Below, piece by piece: positions 3,095 through 16,586 of a stretch of DNA of 64,000 nucleotides. Below the pieces are notes generated by a model. It was not told the origin of the DNA. It searched no databases and saw nothing but the letters and a program-made list of their open reading frames with translations. Where the stretch lies: contig CAZNIO010000002.1 of the NCBI GenBank assembly GCA_964573135.1, forward strand, positions 2,535-66,534, written 5' to 3'. Position 1 is the stretch's first letter. Every line of letters begins with the position of its first letter. Made by a program: the position numbers and the translations under genes. Source of the stretch: an uncultured Gammaproteobacteria bacterium (lineage in GTDB: Bacteria > Patescibacteriota > Patescibacteriia > UBA2196 > GWA2-42-15).

Positions 3095-6000
3095 ATGCCT
3101 AAAAAAACAATTACTAAGAAAAAAATAGAAAAAGAAAAACCAGCCGCTGCCCCCAAAGCGCTGGCTTCTGTAAATCCAAGAGAAATTACAACAGAAATGA
3201 AAGAATCCTACCTGGATTACGCAATGAGCGTTATAGTTAGACGCGCCCTACCAGATGTACGTGATGGCTTAAAACCAGTTCATCGAAGAATTCTTTTTGC
3301 TATGTGGAATCTAGGACTAAAAAGCTCTGCAAAGTTTAGAAAATCAGCCACTGTAGTTGGTGAAGTACTTGGTAAGTATCATCCCCACGGAGATACTGCA
3401 GTTTATGACTCCATGGTGCGCATGGCGCAAGACTTCTCTCTTCGCTACCCGCTAGTACACGGGCAGGGCAATTTTGGTTGCTTTACTAAAGATACTAAGG
3501 TCAAATTAACTGACGGCAGAAATCTAACCTTTGGCGAATTAATTAAAGAAAACAAGTTAGGCAAAAAAAACTTTACCTATACGGTCAACTCGCTGGGGCT
3601 AATTGCAGTAGCTGAAATCAAAAAACCACGGCTCACTAAAAAAAATACTCCAATCATTAGGGTAATTCTAGACAATGGGGAAAAAATTAAATGTACTCCC
3701 AATCATAAATTCATGATGAAAGACGGTTCATATAAAGAGGCCGAAAACCTTAAACCGCAAGATTCACTAATGCCTTGTTATGAAAAAGTTTCAAAAAATA
3801 CAGATAGGCTCAACAGAAAAGGCTATACGCTAATATTTCAAAATAAAAAAAATGAGTGGATTCCAGCCCATCATTTAGCCGATAATTACAACTTAACTAA
3901 TAAAAAATATAACAAAAGTGCAGGTCGAGTAAGGCATCATTTAAATTTTGACAAACTTAACAACAATCCAAATAATATAGCAAGAATGCATTGGAAAGAG
4001 CACTGGCAAACACACTATAAAAATGCCTCTGCTCTGCATCAAGACGAAAATTATCGCAAAAAAATTGCCACAGGCAGAAAAAAATTCTGGGCAAATCCAG
4101 CCAACAGAGCCAGATACTCAAAAGCACTCTCCAAAAGAAACACGAAAAACTGGGAAGACCCAGTATACAGAGAAAAAATGACAATTTTCTTGAGCGAAAT
4201 CAATAAACAATACATCCAAGATCATCCGGAACGTCGACAAGAACTAAGCGAGCAAGCAACAAAAACTTTAAAACGCTTATGGCAAAATCCAGACTATCGC
4301 GCCATAATGCACGAAAAAATAATTAAAGGAAACAAAAATCACACCACTAACAAAACGGGGAAAGTCAAATTTATAAAAATCTGTAAAAAAGTTATTGGGA
4401 AATACTCTGTTATCAACGAAAATAATTATCTTGCAACAAGAAATAGAATTTATCCTTATGGCAAAGCGCCACTTTGGGAAACAGGATTAAGTAAATATTT
4501 TCAAAACGACTCAAATCTAATTCTTCAAGAAATTAACAAAAATCATAAGGTAATTAGAATAGAAAAAATTATCAAAAAAGAGGACGTATACGACCTAACT
4601 ATTGATAAAACACACAACTTCTGCTTAGCCGCTGGAATCTTTGTTCACAATTCCCTTGACGGAGATTCTGCTGCAGCTATGCGCTACTGCATCACTGGAG
4701 ATTCTTTGATTCTAACCGACAAAGGAATCTTACCTATCAAAAATATATCTTCAAAAAAAGAGGATAAAATAAAACTGAATATCCTCAACCATCAAGGCAA
4801 ACAAAAACCAGCTGTCAAATTTTTCAATTCCGGTAAACACAACATCTTCCATCTAAGTACAAACCTCAATTACCAAATAAAAGGATCTTCTAACCATCCG
4901 CTACTCACCTGGCAGCCAAACGAATTCGGAATACCGACCACTAAATGGAAATTACTTGAAGAAATAACTACTCAAGATCACGTATTAATCAACAGAAACT
5001 CCTCACTTTTCAGTAAAAATAACCCCAATTTGTCACAATATCATCCTCGCAATTTAAATAAAAAACATAAAACTAATATCCAGCTTCCCAAAACAATGAA
5101 TAAAGACATTGCTTTCTTGCTGGGTGCCCTAACTGCTGAGGGCAGCTTACATCAAAATCAAATCCTATTTAGCAATCAAGATCAAGTATTCTATAAAAAA
5201 GTTAGAGATATTATTCTAAAACAATTTAAAGGTACTAAGCTCTATGAGCATGATACCGTAAACGGCAACTGCAAAGAGCTTAGCCTCTATCATCAAAAAG
5301 CTGTTAAATTTCTACACAACATCGGATTATCTACTGGAAAATCTCACACAAAAGAAATTCCATTCTCTGTTCTCCTATCCCAAAAAGGAACAGTTAAATA
5401 CTTTCTGCAAGGACTTTTTGAAGGAGACGGCTCTGTGTCTTTCCAAAAAGACAAACGCCATGGGGGCAATTCAACGGAAGTCACCTATAACTCCAAAAGT
5501 GAAATCCTTATTAAACAATTAAAAACTGTTTTGCTTAATTTTGGTGTTATCACCAGCACTCCATATAAAGACAAAAGAAACGACTGCTACAAGCTCCTAG
5601 TTCATGGCCAAAATAATATTAATAATTTCTATACTCAAATCAACTTCTTCTCTAAACGCAAAAAACAAGAGCTTGCTCATGTCAAAGACTTGAACAAAAA
5701 CAGAATGAGCAAAACGGATTTTATCCCGTACCTCTCGAATTATCTAAAAAACAATTACTCAAATTCTTTTTTCAAAAAACATAACCTGGATCGCTATAAT
5801 AATTTACAAAAAAATTATGACAGAATATCAAAAATACTAAACAAAAGTGATTTAAAAATGATAGATTGGCTACTGCAAAACCACTATCTCTTTGACAAAG
5901 TCAAAACCATAACTAAGTCCAAAACCAAGGAAGAAGTATATTCAATTAAAGTTGATAGCAACTGCCACTCATTTATTGCCAACGGCTTCATAAATCACAA

Positions 6001-8089
6001 CACTGAAGCAAAACTCAAACCCCTAACCGACGAAATGCTACTTGATCTTGAAAAAAATACAGTTGATTTTGCATCTAATTATGACGACACTCAAAAAGAA
6101 CCTAAAGTCCTACCGGCTAATCTACCCAACCTGCTGGTTAACGGTACATTAGGTATTGCAGTCGGTATGGCTACCAATATCCCTCCTCATAATTTAAGTG
6201 AAATAATAGACGGAGTATGCCTCCTCATAGACAAACCCAATAGTGATACCGACGACCTCTTTCAATTTATCCAGGGACCCGACTTCCCAACTGGTGCCAT
6301 TATCTATAACAAAAACGATATCAAGCAAGCCTATGCTACTGGCAAAGGCTCTATTGTCATGCGTGCCGAAAACGAAATAGTTGAAGCCAAAGGTGGTGCA
6401 TTTCAAATAATAATATCATCCGTTCCTTACCAGGTTAATAAAGCTACTCTGCTTGAAAAAATAGCTGATTTAGTCAAAACCAAAAAAGTAGAAGGCATTA
6501 GGGATCTGCGTGACGAATCCTCAAAAGGCGACGTGCGCATAGTCATTGATCTTAAAAAAGATGCTTACCCTAAAAAAATATTAAATCAGCTATATAAACA
6601 CACTTCTCTGCAAACCTCCTTCCACGTTAATATGTTAGCTTTAGTCGACGGTATCCAACCAAGAGTCCTCACCCTAAAAATGATTCTTGAAGAATTTATC
6701 AAACACAGACAAGAAGTAGTCGAGCGTAGAACTAAATTTGAACTAGATAAAGCCAAGGCTCGTGCCCACGTACTTGAAGGCTTAATGCTGGCTTTAAATA
6801 AAATAGATGCCGTCATTAAAACAATCAAAGCCTCAAAAGACAGGGAAGAAGCCAAAAATAACCTTATAAAAAAATTCAAACTCACAGAAATCCAATCCAT
6901 CGCCATTCTAGAAATGAAACTTCAACAGCTAGCTAATTTAGAAAAACTAAAAATTGAAACTGAACTTAAAGAAAAGAAAAAAATAATCAAAGAATTAACT
7001 GAACTACTCAAAAGTCCAAAGAAAATTTTAGCACTTATCAAAAAAGAACTTCTAGCTGTCAAAGAAAAATTTGGTGATGAAAGAAAAACTAGAATTATCA
7101 AAGGCGCAGTTAATCAATTTTCACAAGAAGACCTTATCCCAGACGAAAATGTTATCATTGTCATTACAAAAGATGGATATATTAAACGTATGCCACTGGA
7201 TACATTCAAGGCCCAAGGCCGTGGCGGCAAAGGAGTAACTGGACTAGCCACAAAAGAAGAGGATACTGTTGAAGAATTCTTCACAACCTCTACTCATAAT
7301 AATCTTCTCTTCTTCACCACTCGTGGCAGAGTCTTTCAACTCAAAGCATACGAAATTCCAGTCGCATCGCGCATAGCCAAAGGCCAATCCATCGTTAATT
7401 TCCTGGAACTAGCACCAAACGAAAAAGTATCCTCTGTCTTCTCTTTAGGTCTGCTTGATAAGTATAAATATTTAGTAATGGTTACAACATCAGGTACAAT
7501 CAAAAAAGTAGAAATTTCTGCCTTCTCTAATGTGCGTCGCTCTGGACTAATTGCCCTAAAACTTAAAGGAGAAGATACCCTAGCCTGGGTAGAGCCATCA
7601 ACAGGGCAAGATGAAATAATGTTAACCACTACTCTTGGTCAAGCAATACGCTTTAAGGAAAAAGATCTACGTGCCATGGGTAGAGGAGCTGCCGGCGTAC
7701 GTGGTATCCGACTCAAAAAGGATAGCCAAGTATCAGGCATGGATATGATTAATAAAGAAAAAATAAAAGGCTATCTCTTTGCCTTATCCTCTAACGGATT
7801 TGGTAAAATAACAGCCATCAAAAACTACAAAACCCAAGGCCGTGGAGGCTCTGGTATTAAAACTCTAAAGGTTACAAATAAAACTGGCCCCCTAGCTTCA
7901 TCCTTTATAGTCGATCCTAAAAACTTACCCGAAGAAACAAAAGGTGACCTCATAATAATATCCGAAAAGGGTCAAGTCATCCGCCTACCTTTAAAATCAG
8001 TACCAACCCTGGGTCGTGACACCCAAGGCGTACGCCTCATGCGCCTAAAAAACGCAAATGACAGTGTGGCCAATGTAACCCTGGTCTAA
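3095..8089 (+). CDS. gyrA: DNA gyrase subunit A carrying two inteins. The extein is about 835 aa; the whole ORF is 1664 aa.
   Basis: N-terminus [50 protein letters not shown] (catalytic Tyr), then TEAKL...[18 protein letters not shown]. The C-terminal beta-pinwheel repeats are intact. Confidence 0.95.
3479..4651 (+). mobile_element. Intein 1 in gyrA (391 aa), inserted between GQGNFG and SLDGD. It starts with Cys and ends with HN, and the +1 residue is Ser. It has a putative HNH-like endonuclease domain (HHL...HH..N).
   Basis: The host protein is continuous when residues 129-519 are removed (HGQGNFG|[12 protein letters not shown] matches the E. coli GyrA consensus). It carries the canonical intein terminal residues C...HN/S. 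Confidence 0.8.
4688..6001 (+). mobile_element. Intein 2 in gyrA (438 aa), at the classical gyrA-a site right after the catalytic Tyr (AMRY|C...HN|TE). It contains a LAGLIDADG homing endonuclease domain.
   Basis: [13 protein letters not shown]...FINHN|TEAKL parallels the Mxe GyrA intein (CITGDALVAL...VSHN|TEARL). LAGLIDADG-like blocks [14 protein letters not shown] and [14 protein letters not shown] are present. Confidence 0.9.
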
Positions 8090-8841: not shown

Positions 8842-10065
8842 ATGCTCAGGAAAAAAACACACATTATAATAACAGTTATACTACTAGCCCTTTTTTTTAC
8901 GCCAATTTTTTGCCAAGCTTTTGAATATACATCCCTAGACCACTACACCCGCTATTTCTATAACCGCTACTCCAAGCACTTTGATAACTTTGGCCTAAAA
9001 TATGCAAGCCCCACCTATGGTATCCAAAAACTCAAAAATCCAGAAACCTCTCGTGAATGGATATCCCTTGCCTCATACTATAAATACAGAAGCATCCGAG
9101 GTGATATCAAGGCCAAACAAGCACTCAAAGACGCCGTCCATCAATCCTACCTAGCCAGCTTAAACAAATTGCCTCACGCTCAATCGTTTCAAGATGCTGA
9201 AAGCTATTTTCTAATACTTCAAGTATTTGAAAATGACCCAAACCTTTTTAACGAATTTGAACAAAAAAGAATAATTTACCAAATCAAAAAATATATCGAA
9301 CCAGGCATTAAGGCGAATGATACAGAAAATAGGAGCTTGGTATCAGCAGCTCATTGGCAATACATTGTCAATCTACTACATACCAAAAACATATTAAACC
9401 AAAGTCAAAAAGAATATTTTGATAAATTAATAAAAATAAAGATTGATACAGCTATTAATAGTTGCATCAACCAAGATTACTGGTATTTTGAAAATAATTG
9501 GAAAGATTTTTCACCTCACTATCATACAGTATCAGCCTTTATGCTAATGATCTATGGAGATCTAACCCAGCAAGACAAATACCTAGACATCTCCCAAGGA
9601 ATGTACTACAATATTAAAAAGGTGTCTTTCAAAAACGGTATGGTGGAAGCCCATCTTGGCAGAAGACCCCTAGGACTGGGAGCCCAGTTCTATCTTATGC
9701 AAGGACTACTTGGTAAATATTTTGATGACCCAGATTATAGTGTCTATCTGGCATATGCCAAAGGCCACAGATTCTTCTCAGATAAACAACACCCCGACCG
9801 CTTGGAATTCCACTCAACTATAGAAAATTCAGATCCTCAATTCCATGATGATTACGCATTTTCAGATAAAGCAGAGCTTGCCTTAACTATACCCAAATTA
9901 CAAAATGTAAATTTCAGTTCTAAATACTATTTTGACGACCCAATCCAACAATCAAGTGATGATAGTTATAATATAAAAAATACAGGTAATAAAATAATAT
10001 TTAATAAAATAAAAAACGTTCTTGGAAGCTATGGGAATTGGTCCCATATTTACAATTTAAAATAA
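8842..10065 (+). CDS. Hypothetical secreted protein (signal peptide)
   Basis: The N-terminus MLRKKTHIIITVILLALFFTPIFCQA resembles a signal peptide. No recognisable catalytic motif. Confidence 0.45.
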   Translation: MLRKKTHIIITVILLALFFTPIFCQAFEYTSLDHYTRYFYNRYSKHFDNFGLKYASPTYGIQKLKNPETSREWISLASYYKYRSIRGDIKAKQALKDAVHQSYLASLNKLPHAQSFQDAESYFLILQVFENDPNLFNEFEQKRIIYQIKKYIEPGIKANDTENRSLVSAAHWQYIVNLLHTKNILNQSQKEYFDKLIKIKIDTAINSCINQDYWYFENNWKDFSPHYHTVSAFMLMIYGDLTQQDKYLDISQGMYYNIKKVSFKNGMVEAHLGRRPLGLGAQFYLMQGLLGKYFDDPDYSVYLAYAKGHRFFSDKQHPDRLEFHSTIENSDPQFHDDYAFSDKAELALTIPKLQNVNFSSKYYFDDPIQQSSDDSYNIKNTGNKIIFNKIKNVLGSYGNWSHIYNLK

Positions 10066-10071
10066 TACCAT

Positions 10072-10384
10072 GCCGAGGTAGCTCAGTGGTAGAGCACAGG
10101 ACTGAATTTTCGGTCCATCACAAAGCAATTTGTGATCGCAAACTGGGTGAATTCGGGGAAACCTACGGTCATATGTATGACTATGGCAATCCCGAGCCAA
10201 GCTCTAGAGGGTATAAGTTCTAGAGAAGGTGTAGAGACTAACAGGTGAGTCCCAACAATAACCCTGTATAAGCGCCCAGCCCCTAATATTCAATTAGGGT
10301 GATGAGATAGTCCGATCCTAAAGGAAACTTTAGTTAACACACAGGAAAATCCTGGTGTCGAGAGTTCGATTCTCTCCCTCGGCA
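10072..10384 (+). tRNA. tRNA-Phe (anticodon GAA) interrupted by a group I intron. Exons are 10072..10103 and 10345..10384; no CCA is encoded.
   Basis: The exons join to GCCGAGGUAGCUCAGUGGUAGAGCACAGGACU|GAAAAUCCUGGUGUCGAGAGUUCGAUUCUCUCCCUCGGCA, a complete cloverleaf with close similarity to bacterial tRNA-Phe. The acceptor stem GCCGAGG/CCTCGGC pairs across the intron. Confidence 0.8.
10104..10344 (+). ncRNA. Group I self-splicing intron (241 nt) in the anticodon loop of tRNA-Phe, between U33 and G34
   Basis: The core closely resembles Azoarcus/cyanobacterial tRNA group I introns (GAATTCGGGGAAACCTACGG, TATGGCAATCCCGAGCCAAGC, GAAGGTGTAGAGACTAACAGGTGAG). P1 forms between exon GGACU and intron GGUCC with a U.G at the 5' splice site. 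The last intron nucleotide is G. Confidence 0.8.
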
Positions 10385-10899
10385 AATCGCGGGATGTGGT
10401 ATAATGGTAGTACGTATGCTTTGGGAGCATATAGCGGGAGTTCGATTCTCCCCATCCCGAATTTAAAACTCTGACTTTGCGTCAGGGTTTTAAAATACCC
10501 CAATAAAAAAGATGATGTACTATTTAATATACACCATCTTATAATCTTATTTCTTGCCCTCTTTTCTATCCAAGCCCAATTGCGCTCGTTATCTGCTTTA
10601 ATAATTTGTGGATAATGAGCGCAGACATCGGAATTTAATAAAACACTGGCTCGCATTTTATACTTATCCAATAAATCCATTATCCGCCAAAGTCCCACCC
10701 GCACACCATAATCTCGCCAGCCATAATTTAACGGATCTGGATCCAAATTGGCAGTGCCAGAAAAAATACTTGTGGCCGGCTTACCGAGCTCATAATCCTC
10801 AATATTCAATCCAATATAAACAGCGAACCCTTCCCCGTTCGGCCATTTAATTTTTGGCCGTTCAATGATAGGGCTATAATTAAAAAGTTCATTTTCCAT
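10330..10899 (-). pseudogene. 3'-truncated PuuE/polysaccharide-deacetylase-like gene. Only about 115 N-terminal residues are homologous; the reading frame then runs through the tRNA-Pro/Phe genes.
   Basis: ERPKIKWPNGEGFAVYIGLNIEDYE...YGVRVGLWRIMDLL...NSDVCAHYPQIIKA parallels the PuuE N-terminus (KWPG.ARIALSFVLNYEEGGE...YGSRAGVWRLL...NPEVIRA). The catalytic GHE..SHG segment is lost and the 3' part overlaps tRNAs. Confidence 0.45.
10390..10460 (+). tRNA. tRNA-Pro (anticodon UGG)
   Basis: C1-G72 acceptor (CGGGATG/CATCCCG), anticodon loop TTTGGGA with G37, T-arm GGGAG/TTCGATT/CTCCC. It starts 5 nt after tRNA-Phe. Confidence 0.85.
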
Positions 10900-10902
10900 G
10901 TC

Positions 10903-11538
10903 TTACTCCGTCTGTTTGGTTAACGATTTTAAATATTTAATTACACCAGCTGAATTAATCACATCAGCATATCTTGTTTCTAAGTTGATCAAACTTTGCC
11001 GATGTGCATTTTTATCGCGATCAACAACTGCGTCCACAACCACAATTGGCCTATAACCATAAGATATAGCATCAACGGCAGTAGCTTTAACACAGCCACT
11101 GGTTGAGCAACCAATAATAATTAAAGTATCAACCTGTTTAAAATTTAACTGCGAAGCAAGATCAGTTCCAAAAAACGCCGAAGCATAATGCTTTTTAACT
11201 GTTTTATCCCAATCCTCTTTATTAATCCGTGAATCTATCTCAACTGCCGATGTTCCTTCCATTAGAGTATTTAACCCGCTTTGTTTTAAAAACCAAATAC
11301 CCGCTTCTGAGATATTCTTATAACAAGTGAGAGAAAAATAAATTGGAACATCTTTACTGCGGGCGGCCTGAATAACTCTGTTTATTATCTCAATTTCTCT
11401 ATTCATCACCATGCCCAATGGAGAATTTGTATTACTAAAAGCATTCATCATATCAACCACTATTACAGCTGGTCTTTCTCCAAAGCCCATTTTTTGACCG
11501 AACCCTCTTTTAATATAAATTTCTTTTACTTTCTTCAT
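10903..11538 (-). CDS. Isochorismatase-family cysteine hydrolase
   Basis: Conserved GCSTSGCV catalytic-Cys region and the family-typical fold pattern (VIVVDMMN..., DxK...). Confidence 0.8.
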   Translation of the reverse strand: MKKVKEIYIKRGFGQKMGFGERPAVIVVDMMNAFSNTNSPLGMVMNREIEIINRVIQAARSKDVPIYFSLTCYKNISEAGIWFLKQSGLNTLMEGTSAVEIDSRINKEDWDKTVKKHYASAFFGTDLASQLNFKQVDTLIIIGCSTSGCVKATAVDAISYGYRPIVVVDAVVDRDKNAHRQSLINLETRYADVINSAGVIKYLKSLTKQTE

Positions 11539-11541
11539 ACT

Positions 11542-12681
11542 TCATAGATTCCTCCTTTTTCTTGAAATTATTTTTAAGTACCCTTTTAATTTATTTAATT
11601 GCTCTGTCTGTTCAATAACCATGCATCGATCTACCACCTCTCCGTAAAAATCCAACAACTCCTGTCCGTGCAATCTCTTAATATTCCCGATAAAATCCAT
11701 ACCTGTTAATGCATCATTATAAATCGCAATCGGAATATCAAAATCAGCGACCTCAGGATATAAAGATTTTATCCCAGTCTTAAATTTTGACCCACTGCGA
11801 AATATCAATTTAAATAAGTCGCCATGATACTCAATATTTAAATAAGCCTCGGCAGTATAAACAAGAAAATCAGTTGATTCACTTCGGTCAGACAACTTAA
11901 AATGCTTGACACCTATTTGCTCATATTCTCTTATATCTTCCGGCCTAATAAAGGGGCTGGCAGGGAGTCGGATAGGGTCATTCAAATATTCCAATGAGCA
12001 CTTAGCAATATATGGATCAAATCTGGTTGTTATATGCTTATCTCCACTTTGCGACGCATAACCAAAAAACTTGTAATGAGCATCTCTCCATGGACAATGG
12101 CTCAGACATGGAATATTTGCATAGAGCACCACGGGGATATCAAGAGCACCAACAATTTGCTTGATCATTTTAAAATCCCTATTGATTGTAAAAGGACTCA
12201 AATGAATAACATCAACTCCCATGTCCTCATGTTTTTTAGCCTGCTCGACTGTATCCACGCCAGCAATTAACGAGAGATAAACTCCCAATCTTGGAAATTT
12301 CTCTTTAACTAACCCAATCAAAAAAGGATGGGTGATTGTCAAACAATCAACCCCAGCTTCTTCGTCAAGCCTGGCTATAAATTCAACCACTTCTTTCACC
12401 CATGATTTGTCGGCCTCCCTACCTCCAAAATCAGGGGCATTCATCGTATAGTTAAACCTAATGCCATACTTATGAGCATCTCTTACATGCTTAATCATTT
12501 GCTTCCACGAAACATCAGGTAACCGATAAGCTGGCCGGCCACTGCCGGTAATACCTGTTTTAAGGGATCCAAAAATCTCAGTAACCCTTCTGTCTTTCTG
12601 CTTATATTGCTGATTAAGTTTATGCAACCGAACCAGCAATTCATTATCATCCCACGATGTGGCAATTGCGAACTCAGTCAT
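11542..12681 (-). CDS. Peptidase U32-family (TIM-barrel) protein
   Basis: Pattern similarity to U32 family proteins (hk.gi..y.t.N..., vD.l.i.hp.l.gl..e..P.l...lS.....N......k..G...I.LS.e.....I..I......P..L...N.PCLSHC). First gene of a three-gene minus-strand operon. Confidence 0.5.
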   Translation of the reverse strand: MTEFAIATSWDDNELLVRLHKLNQQYKQKDRRVTEIFGSLKTGITGSGRPAYRLPDVSWKQMIKHVRDAHKYGIRFNYTMNAPDFGGREADKSWVKEVVEFIARLDEEAGVDCLTITHPFLIGLVKEKFPRLGVYLSLIAGVDTVEQAKKHEDMGVDVIHLSPFTINRDFKMIKQIVGALDIPVVLYANIPCLSHCPWRDAHYKFFGYASQSGDKHITTRFDPYIAKCSLEYLNDPIRLPASPFIRPEDIREYEQIGVKHFKLSDRSESTDFLVYTAEAYLNIEYHGDLFKLIFRSGSKFKTGIKSLYPEVADFDIPIAIYNDALTGMDFIGNIKRLHGQELLDFYGEVVDRCMVIEQTEQLNKLKGYLKIISRKRRNL

Positions 12682-12762
12682 AATCGTCTCCCATTTATTG
12701 GTTTTTTAAAATTTCAGTTTATTAACCCATCTTAAGAAAAAACAAAAATATATTCAACCAGG

Positions 12763-12844
12763 CCGTCGTTTTTTAACAAATATTTGACTTTTTGCCTAGG
12801 ATAAGCTAAAATTTGAGTATTAAAAAACGACGGAAAAGCCGTCG
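12763..12844 (+). promoter_or_regulatory. Candidate operator/promoter of the TrmB-family regulator. The palindrome arms CCGTCGTTTTTTAA / TTAAAAAACGACGG flank TTGACT-N17-TAAAAT, followed by the hairpin CGACGG-AAAAG-CCGTCG.
   Basis: Read directly: three CCGTCG/CGACGG half-sites at 12763, 12828 and 12839, with the -35 at 12784..12789 and the -10 at 12807..12812. Confidence 0.4.
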
Positions 12845-12856
12845 TAAATAGAGCAT

Positions 12857-13600
12857 ATGAAAACCAACAAAATATTAGAAAAGCTAGGTCTTAACAAAAA
12901 ACAAGCTTTAATATATAGTGCTGTCCTGGAAATTAGCCGTGGTAGCGGGCAAACCATTGCCGAAAAAGCTGAATTACCCAAATCCACCACCTATGACATC
13001 TTAAAATCCCTAACTCGTCGTGGCCTAATTAGTGTTTATCTAAAAGGGAAAAAACGCTATTTCACTGCCAATAATCCCAGTATCTTTAAAGACAAAATCA
13101 AAGAACAAAATGAAATTCTAACTAAATTTCTACCAATTCTTGAATCTCTTTATATTACAAGAGACCGTAAACCAGGGGTAAGATTCTATGAAGGCAAAAA
13201 GGGGATTGACATCGTTATTAAAGAAATATTAAAAGAAGCAAGGAATATGATATCATTCGGCTCTGTCGACGATATCTTTGCAAAACTCCCTGATTATTTC
13301 CCAAAATTTTCACAAGAGAGAGCTAAAAGAAAAATTCCTATCCGCATAATTCTAAGATCATCCTCTCTGGCTATTGAAAGGCAAAAATCCGGCCCCAAAG
13401 AATTACGCCAAGTAAAAATTATTAAAACTCAAATAACTTTTCACTCTCTTGTTTGGTTATGGAATAATAAAATTGCATTAATCACATTAAAAGAAAACTT
13501 ATCAGCGACTATAATTGAAAGCCACGAACTAACCAATTCACTCAAGGCATTATTTGAGATCGCCTGGAACTGCCATTGCCAAGACGCAAATGAAGTATAA
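12857..13600 (+). CDS. TrmB-family transcriptional regulator
   Basis: N-terminal wHTH LGLNKKQALIYSAVLEISRGSGQTIAEKAELPKSTTYDILKSLTRRGLI typical of TrmB. Confidence 0.7.
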   Translation: MKTNKILEKLGLNKKQALIYSAVLEISRGSGQTIAEKAELPKSTTYDILKSLTRRGLISVYLKGKKRYFTANNPSIFKDKIKEQNEILTKFLPILESLYITRDRKPGVRFYEGKKGIDIVIKEILKEARNMISFGSVDDIFAKLPDYFPKFSQERAKRKIPIRIILRSSSLAIERQKSGPKELRQVKIIKTQITFHSLVWLWNNKIALITLKENLSATIIESHELTNSLKALFEIAWNCHCQDANEV

Positions 13601-13678
13601 AAATAACTTACCCAAAAAATACTTTACTAAACCCCATAAATTATATATCCTTAAAACATAACTAACTAACTTCAATAT

Positions 13679-14743
13679 ATGCCAACTACACTTTTTGGAT
13701 TTAATCTCACTCATTATGAACTCTGGGGTAATACTTTAGATGAATATCTCCTCACTTTAGCCGTATTTATCGGCTGTGTCATAATATTTAAAATTTTCCA
13801 AAGTATTATCATCCATCGTCTAAAAAAATTAGTTAAAAAAACCAAAACTGACATTGATGATACCCTACTCGAGATAGTACAAAGCCTGCGTCCCAAATTC
13901 TACTTCCTAATCTCCTTCTATATAGCCCTTAATTTCCTCATAGTCCACCACATTATACAAAAAACAATTGAAGTAATTCTCATCATCTGGATAATTTATC
14001 AAATTATTAAAGCAGTTCAAATCCTAATAGAATTCATTGCCCAAAAAAACACTGATGAAGAAAGCGAAGGCGAAACCAAAGCAGCTATAAATCTCATTAG
14101 TAAATTAGCCAGCATAGCTCTTTGGGCATTGGGGCTTTTGCTCGTCCTCTCCAACTTAGGCGTTAATATCACTTCGCTAATTGCTGGCCTAGGCATTGGT
14201 GGTATTGCTGTTGCTCTTGCACTTCAAAATATATTAAGTGACCTTTTCAGTTCATTTGCAATATATTTTGATAAACCATTTACCATCGGGGATTTTATCA
14301 TTGTTGGTGATAAAATGGGAGAAGTCGAAAAAATCGGTATTAAAACAACTCGCATTAAATCCATCCAAGGTGAAGAGTTAATAATTTCAAACCAAGAATT
14401 AACATCAGCTCAAATCCAAAACTTCAAAAAAATGGAAGAACGTCGCATCGTTCTTTCTCTGAGTGTTCTCTATGAAACACCAGGGGCAAAATTAGAAAAA
14501 ATTCCCAACCTCATACAAGAAACTATTCAAAGCGTCACTAAAACCCGTTTTGATCGCGCACATTTCAAGTCCTTTGGTGACTCAGCCCTCATATTTGAGG
14601 CTGTTTATTACGTTGAAAGCGGCGAATATCTAGATTACATGGATACCAACCAAGAAATCCATTTTAAGCTTAAAAACGCCCTTGATAAGGAAAAAATCGA
14701 GTTTGCCTACCCAACTCAAACCCTTTATCTCAATAAAAGCTAA
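13679..14743 (+). CDS. Mechanosensitive ion channel (MscS family)
   Basis: TM helices followed by the conserved MscS pore/beta-domain region (LGVNITSLIAGLGIGGIAVALALQN...FDKPFTIGDFI...GEVEKIGIKTTRI). Confidence 0.85.
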   Translation: MPTTLFGFNLTHYELWGNTLDEYLLTLAVFIGCVIIFKIFQSIIIHRLKKLVKKTKTDIDDTLLEIVQSLRPKFYFLISFYIALNFLIVHHIIQKTIEVILIIWIIYQIIKAVQILIEFIAQKNTDEESEGETKAAINLISKLASIALWALGLLLVLSNLGVNITSLIAGLGIGGIAVALALQNILSDLFSSFAIYFDKPFTIGDFIIVGDKMGEVEKIGIKTTRIKSIQGEELIISNQELTSAQIQNFKKMEERRIVLSLSVLYETPGAKLEKIPNLIQETIQSVTKTRFDRAHFKSFGDSALIFEAVYYVESGEYLDYMDTNQEIHFKLKNALDKEKIEFAYPTQTLYLNKS

Positions 14744-14828
14744 AACCCTTGCTTTTCTTAAGGGTTTATGATAATATGAGATAAATAAATCCTCATGTAT
14801 TCAATATAAATTAACTAGTCAAAATACA

Positions 14829-16022: not shown

Positions 16023-16586
16023 ATGCTATCAATCAATGACCTTAAGGTAGGTACTACGTTTAAATACCAAGGCCAACCATACCAAATCGTCAAAGCCAGT
16101 CATCTCAAAATGGGCAGGGGAGCCGCAGTTCTTCAAGCTAAATTCAAAAACCTGCTTAATGGCAATACTCTAGAAAAAAACTTCAAACAATCAGACAAAT
16201 TAGAGGAAGCTGAAGTCGAAAAACGAAGTGCAGATTATTTATATCGCGAAAAAGATGAGTGCTATTTCATGGACGAAAATTATGAACAATTCTTTGTTAA
16301 CGCAGACGTTATTCAAGATAAATTAAAATTTATCAAAGACTCATCACCAGTCAACGTACTCTTCTTTGAAGATCGAGCCGTTGGCATAGAGCTTCCCCCA
16401 AAAGTTGACTTAAAAGTAACTGAAGCCCCTCCAGCAGTAAGAGGCGATACCGCGCAAGGCTCTGTCACAAAACTTATTAAACTTGAAACAGGTCACGAAC
16501 TTCAAGCCCCCATATTTATAAAACAAGAGGATATCGTCAGAGTCAGTACAGAAAGTGGGGAATACGTTGAAAGAGTTAATAAATAA
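16023..16586 (+). CDS. efp: Elongation factor P (Arg at the modified-loop position: KMGRGAA)
   Basis: Three-domain EF-P signature. The loop KPGKG is replaced by KMGRG. Confidence 0.9.
   Translation: MLSINDLKVGTTFKYQGQPYQIVKASHLKMGRGAAVLQAKFKNLLNGNTLEKNFKQSDKLEEAEVEKRSADYLYREKDECYFMDENYEQFFVNADVIQDKLKFIKDSSPVNVLFFEDRAVGIELPPKVDLKVTEAPPAVRGDTAQGSVTKLIKLETGHELQAPIFIKQEDIVRVSTESGEYVERVNK

Follow-up and report, generated by a model that had tools for sequence, protein, structure and literature searches.

The number of bacterial tRNA classes found to be interrupted by introns was raised from 4 to 21 in the accessible text of Williams (2020, bioRxiv 10.1101/2020.01.27.920355). An intron between positions 33 and 34 of tRNA-Phe(GAA) has been listed for Doudnabacteria GCA_016699995.1 (Nakagawa et al. 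2026, mSystems, PMC13011429, Tables 1/S3). Precise self-splicing in vitro was demonstrated for a tRNA-Asn intron (GCA_016700035.1) that shares the P7.1 motif of the intron described here, and a G-to-C mutation of its omega G blocked exon ligation (Nakagawa et al. 2026, PMC13011429). The same study reported that related Asn and Asp introns from Patescibacteria need only GTP to splice in vitro, and it gave the helix between P7 and P3′ the name P7.1 (Fig. 2a). The accessible parts of that paper assign nearly all Patescibacteria tRNA introns to subgroup IA, and none to IC, by subgroup covariance models.

The locus examined here lies in a 64-kb stretch of DNA (the window) with a G+C content of 35.6%. 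The window was recognized as bacterial chromosome because it carries rpoB, rpoC, gyrA, ftsK, pnp and rny. A phage origin was rejected: blastn of 9000-13000 against a phage collection found nothing, and housekeeping genes are present. The encoded RpoB shares 80-85% identity with proteins of Candidatus Kuenenbacteria, and SSB gives the same picture, so the host is assigned to a Kuenenbacteria-like Patescibacterium (CPR), in keeping with the CPR-type lineage guessed at in the first-pass annotation.

A covariance-model search with Rfam RF00028 (Intron_gpI), the check which that annotation had proposed, gave a match at 10094-10334 (+) covering the full model (1-253) with 85.2 bits (E 2.9e-20), above the gathering score of 50. 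No other intron match was found in the 64-kb window. The annotation had placed a 241-nt group I intron at 10104-10344, within the tRNA-Phe(GAA) anticodon loop, between exons 10072-10103 and 10345-10384 that join into a cloverleaf; type, host and coordinates were all confirmed by the RF00028 match, by splicing in silico and by uninterrupted orthologues. ARAGORN identified the spliced sequence as tRNA-Phe(GAA) with a perfect cloverleaf. The 5′ exon (10072-10103, +) comprises tRNA positions 1-33 and ends in U33, in agreement with alignment to the L243, L245 and L248 genes; the intron (10104-10344, +), supported by RF00028 and by covariation in 84 family members, has no ORF and ends in the omega-G at 10344; and the 3′ exon (10345-10384, +) runs from G34 to A73, as the same ARAGORN splice and alignment to the uninterrupted orthologues indicate. 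In default mode ARAGORN called six tRNAs in the whole 64-kb window, none of them tRNA-Phe, and no second tRNA-Phe gene was found within the window. Judged from these 64 kb, the genome probably has no tRNA-Phe(GAA) gene other than the interrupted one. We consider it very probable that the intron is functional, and that this 241-nt element without an endonuclease would splice itself out between U33 and G34 of tRNA-Phe(GAA) in its Kuenenbacteria-like host.

The gene for tRNA-Pro(UGG), detected by both ARAGORN and Rfam, lies 5 nt downstream (10390-10460, +), an order also seen in relatives, and the two tRNAs are probably co-transcribed. A promoter and terminator scan gave no promoter on the + strand and flagged a hairpin at 10471-10485 on the - strand only. 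The 3′ CCA of tRNA-Phe is not encoded in the window (GGCA followed by AATCG, 10384-10389); several of the orthologues L245, L248, L135 and L250 encode GGCACCA. An ORF of 189 aa (10330-10899, -), which public assemblies annotate as a gene, has no Pfam match, and toward its 3′ end it overlaps tRNA-Pro and the 3′ exon of tRNA-Phe in antisense. In all probability this is what remains of a truncated gene, or an ORF drawn too long, and not a real full-length gene.

With GAA at both intron ends, junctions from 33/34 to 36/37 all yield an identical mature sequence, and only junction 33/34 provides both a U at -1 and a G at omega. Together, P1 with its U.G wobble, a P10 of 6 bp and the terminal G fix the insertion site at 33/34. 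P1 (10099-10116, +) is formed by exon GGACU (10099-10103) and intron GGUCC (10112-10116) around the loop 10104-10111, and the U.G pair at the splice site (U10103.G10112) and the final intron G (G10344) are present as first described. P10, which was not mentioned in the earlier note, is formed by the guide AUUUUC (10106-10111, +) and 3′ exon GAAAAU (10345-10350), and the ligated exons, with a predicted junction of GGACU followed by GAAAAUCC, are complementary to the segment 10106-10116. Run in intron mode on the native window, ARAGORN placed a 220-nt intron at 34/35 and returned a tRNA of 95 nt whose anticodon stem contains mismatches. This call was rejected in favor of 33/34 because of U-1, omega-G, P1, P10 and the comparison with empty sites.

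Metagenome contigs matching the exon-1/intron junction, which served as the search pattern, together with the matches from the genome collection yielded 108 tRNA-Phe genes interrupted at 33/34. The matches listed included at least 96 distinct introns, 202-440 nt in length, and the anticodon called by ARAGORN was GAA in 106 of the 108 spliced products. The 84 distinct introns no longer than 262 nt were aligned with MAFFT (alignment A1) and scored against a hand-drawn structure of the window copy. Standard pairs were formed in 92.7% of the cells of A1 compared with 80.3% in shuffles, not one of 500 shuffles equaled the observed values, and compensatory changes were found for 43 pairs; sliding of the 3′ partners, as a control, gave pairing of at most 51%. 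Covariation was found in P2, P3, P4, P6a, P7.1 and P9, and P7 was invariant. In A1, P1 was 98.6% paired, P10 was 99.8% paired and the U.G pair at the 5′ splice site was kept in 83 of 84 members, an invariance that follows from selection, P1 and P10 having been fixed by the search pattern. The introns of L058, L101 and the Doudnabacteria genome adjoin exons reading GCCU/GAAGA and have a guide altered to match, in which UCUUC pairs with GAAGA.

The predicted structure begins, downstream of P1, with the P2 hairpin (10117-10136, +), which was recovered in the minimum-free-energy fold, is capped by a GCAA (GNRA) tetraloop and showed compensatory changes in all seven pairs tested. The 5′ strand of P3 (CUGGGUG, 10143-10149, +) pairs with the 3′ strand CGCCCAG (10273-10279, +); this helix was 99.5% paired, with compensatory changes in three of its seven pairs in A1. 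P4 (10153-10158/10190-10195), J4/5, and P5 with P5a (10162-10186) occupy 10153-10195 (+), as placed by the RF00028 P4/P5 alignment, and P4 was 99.8% paired with two covarying pairs. P6 (10196-10197/10229-10230) and P6a (10202-10208/10219-10225) follow at 10196-10230 (+); all seven P6a pairs covaried (98.1% paired), and the L6a loop starts with GGG (10209-10211). The 5′ strand of P7, G(A)GACU with bulged A10235 (10234-10239, +), pairs with AGUCC (10309-10313) and was invariant in 84 of 84 sequences. From standard group I architecture we infer that P7 is the guanosine-binding helix and holds the G-binding pair. The P7.1 hairpin (10241-10267, +) has a stem ACAGG/CCUGU, in which five of five pairs covaried (99.3% paired), and a conserved, nearly invariant loop, UGAGUCCCAACAAUAAC. 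Pairing of P7 with the AGUCC of the P7.1 loop was ruled out, the U being missing in about half of the family. P8 (CCCUAAU/AUUAGGG, 10281-10299, +) was present in the minimum-free-energy fold; its MAFFT columns were 57% paired, a low value probably due to variable length across the family. The columns of J8/7 and the P7 3′ strand (UGAUGAGAU AGUCC, 10300-10313, +) were invariant or nearly so. The P9 hairpin (10318-10333, +), with a GAAA tetraloop, was 97.2% paired and covaried in six of six pairs. The GNRA tetraloops of L2 and L9 were conserved across the A1 family. In the window copy every invariant family column is intact and all helices are perfectly paired.

This anatomy suggests how splicing would proceed. 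As the pre-tRNA folds, the guide 10106-10116 would pair with both exon ends (P1 GGACU/GGUCC and P10 AUUUUC/GAAAAU) and displace the anticodon stem. Free guanosine bound in P7 would attack after U10103, the terminal G10344 would next occupy the same P7 site, and attack of the 5′ exon after G10344 would ligate the exons and restore the anticodon loop CU-GAA-AA. We infer this mechanism from the anatomy of the intron together with its tested relatives. Many group I introns require proteins in vivo, for example CYT-18, and the intron could likewise be real and depend, inside the cell, on a cofactor or chaperone protein of its host; at 45% G+C it is less stable than the Azoarcus intron, and the z-score of its fold is just -3.2. 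We regard such a requirement as improbable, since its Asn and Asp relatives require nothing beyond GTP for splicing in vitro (PMC13011429) and RNA-only stabilization is offered by the GNRA loops L2 and L9 and by a putative pairing between L6a and L7.1.

The orthologous locus was retrieved from relatives as syntenic contigs, by way of SSB homologues, and has the order tRNA-Ile(GAU) .. tRNA-Phe - tRNA-Pro - S6 - SSB. At this locus tRNA-Phe(GAA) is uninterrupted in L243, L245 (GCA_053992435.1), L248 (GCA_054028335.1) and L249 (GCA_043823865.1) and bears an intron in the window, L135 and L250 (GCA_030631585.1). The spliced window tRNA-Phe is identical at 69 of 72 positions (96%) to the genes of L245 and L248, which read through GGACT followed by GAAAATCC and scored 72.4 bits on RF00005; two of the three differences form a compensatory pair in the acceptor stem. 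By this sequence comparison the exon boundaries are confirmed by the empty sites.

The same data bear on whether the intron is a decayed relic that no longer splices, in which case the tRNA-Phe gene would be a pseudogene and a functional copy would lie elsewhere in the genome. The view of this genome is limited to 64 kb of sequence alone, which leaves space for such a copy. Against a relic stand the intact invariant core positions and perfectly paired helices of the window copy, as well as the position of the gene, which is orthologous to the tRNA-Phe locus of relatives. [quoted passage not shown] Decay is accordingly given a very small probability, and a functional intron remains the preferred reading.

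Pairwise identity among the three introns (window, L135 and L250) is 82-86%. In a small neighbor-joining tree of S6 and SSB (about 300 residues), intron-bearing and intron-less relatives interleave, and on a tree of this size the interleaving may reflect repeated precise loss or lateral gain. No homing endonuclease gene was found: the 241-nt intron holds no ORF, and no sampled family member (202-440 nt) has room for one. The first-pass annotation had suggested intron mobility into a new tRNA. Such a move is not needed as an explanation, the family being old, widespread and without an endonuclease, yet patchy among close relatives. In the preferred reading the intron belongs to a widespread family that is passed on mostly by vertical inheritance, with occasional loss or gain at an unchanged site.

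Other features of the window were compared among the same relatives. The gyrA ORF (3095-8089, +; 1664 aa) has two intein-like insertions, with two Intein_splicing stretches and LAGLIDADG_3. The gyrA of L243 (847 aa) has no intein domains listed and that of L249 contains an intein; because the two differ, intein content is polymorphic among the relatives, as is the tRNA intron. The distance from tRNA-Pro to rpsF (S6)/ssb is a few hundred bases in L243, L245, L248, L249, L250 and L135 and about 4.3 kb in the window (about 10500-14750), where the interval contains a fragmentary ORF together with ORFs for an isochorismatase, a U32-like protein, a TrmB-family regulator and a membrane protein of 354 aa (13679-14743). 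The extra DNA beside the tRNA genes looks like an insertion. In L243, L245 and L249, rpsR (S18) lies between ssb and efp. In the window segment 15311-16586 no ORF of at least 80 aa was found between the end of ssb (15775) and 16023, a cut-off above the size of S18 (about 72 aa); the 187-aa ORF at 16023-16586 is taken as a putative efp from its position and size.

A further contact was suggested by the loops of P7.1 and P6a. In the P7.1 loop, the triplet that directly precedes AACAAU (CCC, 10251-10253) can form Watson-Crick pairs with the start of the P6a loop (GGG, 10209-10211), and this complementarity was found in 82 of 83 sequences. Where the triplet is not CCC, 10 of 11 cases showed matching changes (GCC/GGC in five, CUC/GAG in two, ACC/GGU in two and AUC/GAU in one). 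When unrelated loops were set against these 11 triplets as a control, a mean of 3.5 and a maximum of 8 matches were obtained in 1000 trials. Inspection by eye of the published Asn intron of GCA_016700375.1 revealed CCU/AGG at the same L6a/L7.1 positions. The covariation indicates that L6a and L7.1 form a tertiary contact, in which the P7.1 loop apparently pairs with that of P6a, clamping together the two core domains, P3-P8 and P4-P6. No published account of an L6a/P7.1 contact was found in the accessible literature, in a search largely outside subscription journals. Only this contact and the polymorphism in intron presence might be new in the present description.

The subgroup of the intron was addressed by scanning a genome collection with the IC3 core string, which gave at least 120 loci, and by comparing their P7-to-P7′ segments. 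Three layouts were seen among the matches listed. In the classical Leu, Ile2 and Arg introns P3′ (GACGG...) comes directly after AGAGACUA, and there is no P7.1; one set of patescibacterial introns has two small hairpins, P7.1 and P7.2; and a third layout has a single hairpin, with the conserved loop GUGAG(N)CCCAACAAUAA, ahead of a P3′ that reads AGCGCC. This third layout is that of the window intron (10241-10279), whose loop motif and P3′ recur in the Doudnabacteria Phe intron, in Saccharimonadia Asn introns and in 83 relatives. Its nearest relatives among the matches listed are all of the P7.1 type and in Patescibacteria.

The first-pass annotation had called the intron IC3-type, with core sequences close to those of Azoarcus tRNA-Ile and cyanobacterial tRNA-Leu introns, and had thought of a move into a new tRNA. 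On the sequence, the label fits the P4-P6/P7 core and only partly the intron as a whole. The strings GAGCCAAGC and AAGGUGUAGAGACUA are shared with IC3 introns, L2 is GCAA and L9 is GAAA, there is no P5abc or P2.1, and the tRNA-Leu intron of Nostoc is 68% identical to it; P3′, however, does not follow P7 directly, the covarying 27-nt hairpin 10241-10267 intervening, and neither P7.1, a typical feature of tRNA introns in Patescibacteria, nor this P3′ sequence occurs in classical IC3 introns. That a classical IC3 intron of the Azoarcus or cyanobacterial type has recently moved into a new host tRNA is therefore unlikely. Such a move would account for the core strings GAGCCAAGC...AAGGUGUAGAGACUA, common to the IC3 tRNA-Leu, Ile2 and Arg introns, for GNRA loops in L2 and L9 as in Azoarcus, and for the similarity to Nostoc. 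It would not account for the conserved P7.1 between P7 and P3′, for a P3′ of AGCGCC in place of the GACGGGCAGC of the IC3 set, or for nearest relatives that, among the matches listed, are all P7.1-type patescibacterial introns. A recent jump is also argued against because the family is large and diverged, its at least 96 distinct sequences being 57-83% identical to the window intron, and the published classification, in its accessible parts, puts no Patescibacteria tRNA intron in IC (PMC13011429). A more far-reaching proposal is that the P7.1-bearing introns form a distinct subclass, in which an IC3-like core is combined with a single IA-like P7.1 and an L6a clamp, and that the presence or absence of this endonuclease-less intron among very close relatives, at an identical target site, points to reverse-splicing mobility or to repeated precise loss. 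We put this forward tentatively, as possible but doubtful.

The host tRNA had been thought unusual. This view was overturned: besides the published Phe(GAA) 33/34 case (Nakagawa et al. 2026), tRNA-Phe 33/34 introns were found in at least five further genomes of the collection, namely Taylorbacteria L058, Moraniibacteriota L078, the Patescibacteria-group MAG L101, the unclassified MAG L111 and the Bdellovibrionales-labelled MAG L038, and in at least 119 metagenome contigs, which together with the genome matches held the at least 96 distinct introns. The closest genome relative among the matches listed is that of L038 (CAZSCV010000004.1, 4029-4277, -), 78% identical and at the same site; its occurrence under that label could reflect a mis-binned contig or lateral transfer. 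Three hosts called tRNA-Phe by ARAGORN (L020, L080 and L088) were rejected, being actually tRNA-Leu(UAA) with shifted boundaries. Beyond the four classical hosts, ARAGORN calls at loci within L004-L123 included Arg-UCU, Thr, Asn, Asp, Ser-UGA, Lys-CUU, Leu-CAA and Ile-GAU, and some of these minor calls are likely boundary artefacts like the three Phe calls.

The practical consequence concerns annotation. Because default tRNA finders miss the gene and the intron mode of ARAGORN misplaces its boundaries, a Kuenenbacteria-like genome of this kind would seem to lack tRNA-Phe and its completeness would be underestimated. The locus is one more example of how group I introns persist, in the genome-reduced Patescibacteria, within tRNA genes that are essential and present in one copy. 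Presence and absence at one site, together with the L6a x L7.1 contact, provide material on the upkeep, loss and spread of introns without an endonuclease, and leave knowledge of this kind of intron unchanged.

Comparison with known systems places the intron as follows. It shares with the phage Twort-type IA introns (P7.1/P7.2) an extra element between P7 and P3′, which in the accessible text of one study is thought to stabilize the P3-P7 and P4-P6 domains (PMC6257700); it differs from them in having a single P7.1 hairpin, a family-specific conserved loop and an otherwise IC3-like core. Like the introns of Azoarcus tRNA-Ile(CAU) and Anabaena/Nostoc tRNA-Leu(UAA), it is small, lies in the anticodon loop, has P2-P9 without P5abc and shares their core strings and GNRA loops L2/L9, whereas those introns have no P7.1, occupy other sites and hosts and, in the case of Nostoc, reach an identity of only 68%. 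The Saccharimonadia Asn(GUU) intron of GCA_016700035.1 is alike in its core, in P7.1 with its loop motif and in the P3′ strand AGCGCCC, with 74% identity; it differs in its tRNA and in its 35/36 site, and its splicing has been demonstrated whereas that of the window intron is predicted. The Doudnabacteria Phe intron of GCA_016699995.1 has the same host tRNA, 33/34 site, U-1 and omega-G, likewise lacks an ORF, and carries the P7.1 loop motif GUGAGCCCAACAAUAAU, with 77% identity over 205 aligned positions. It comes from another class of Patescibacteria, is 211 nt long compared with 241 nt, has almost no P9, and lies in an anticodon stem-loop reading GCCU/GAAGA with the guide changed to match. 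As an intron host tRNA-Phe is thus neither new nor rare, and the window intron is a further example of a published type.
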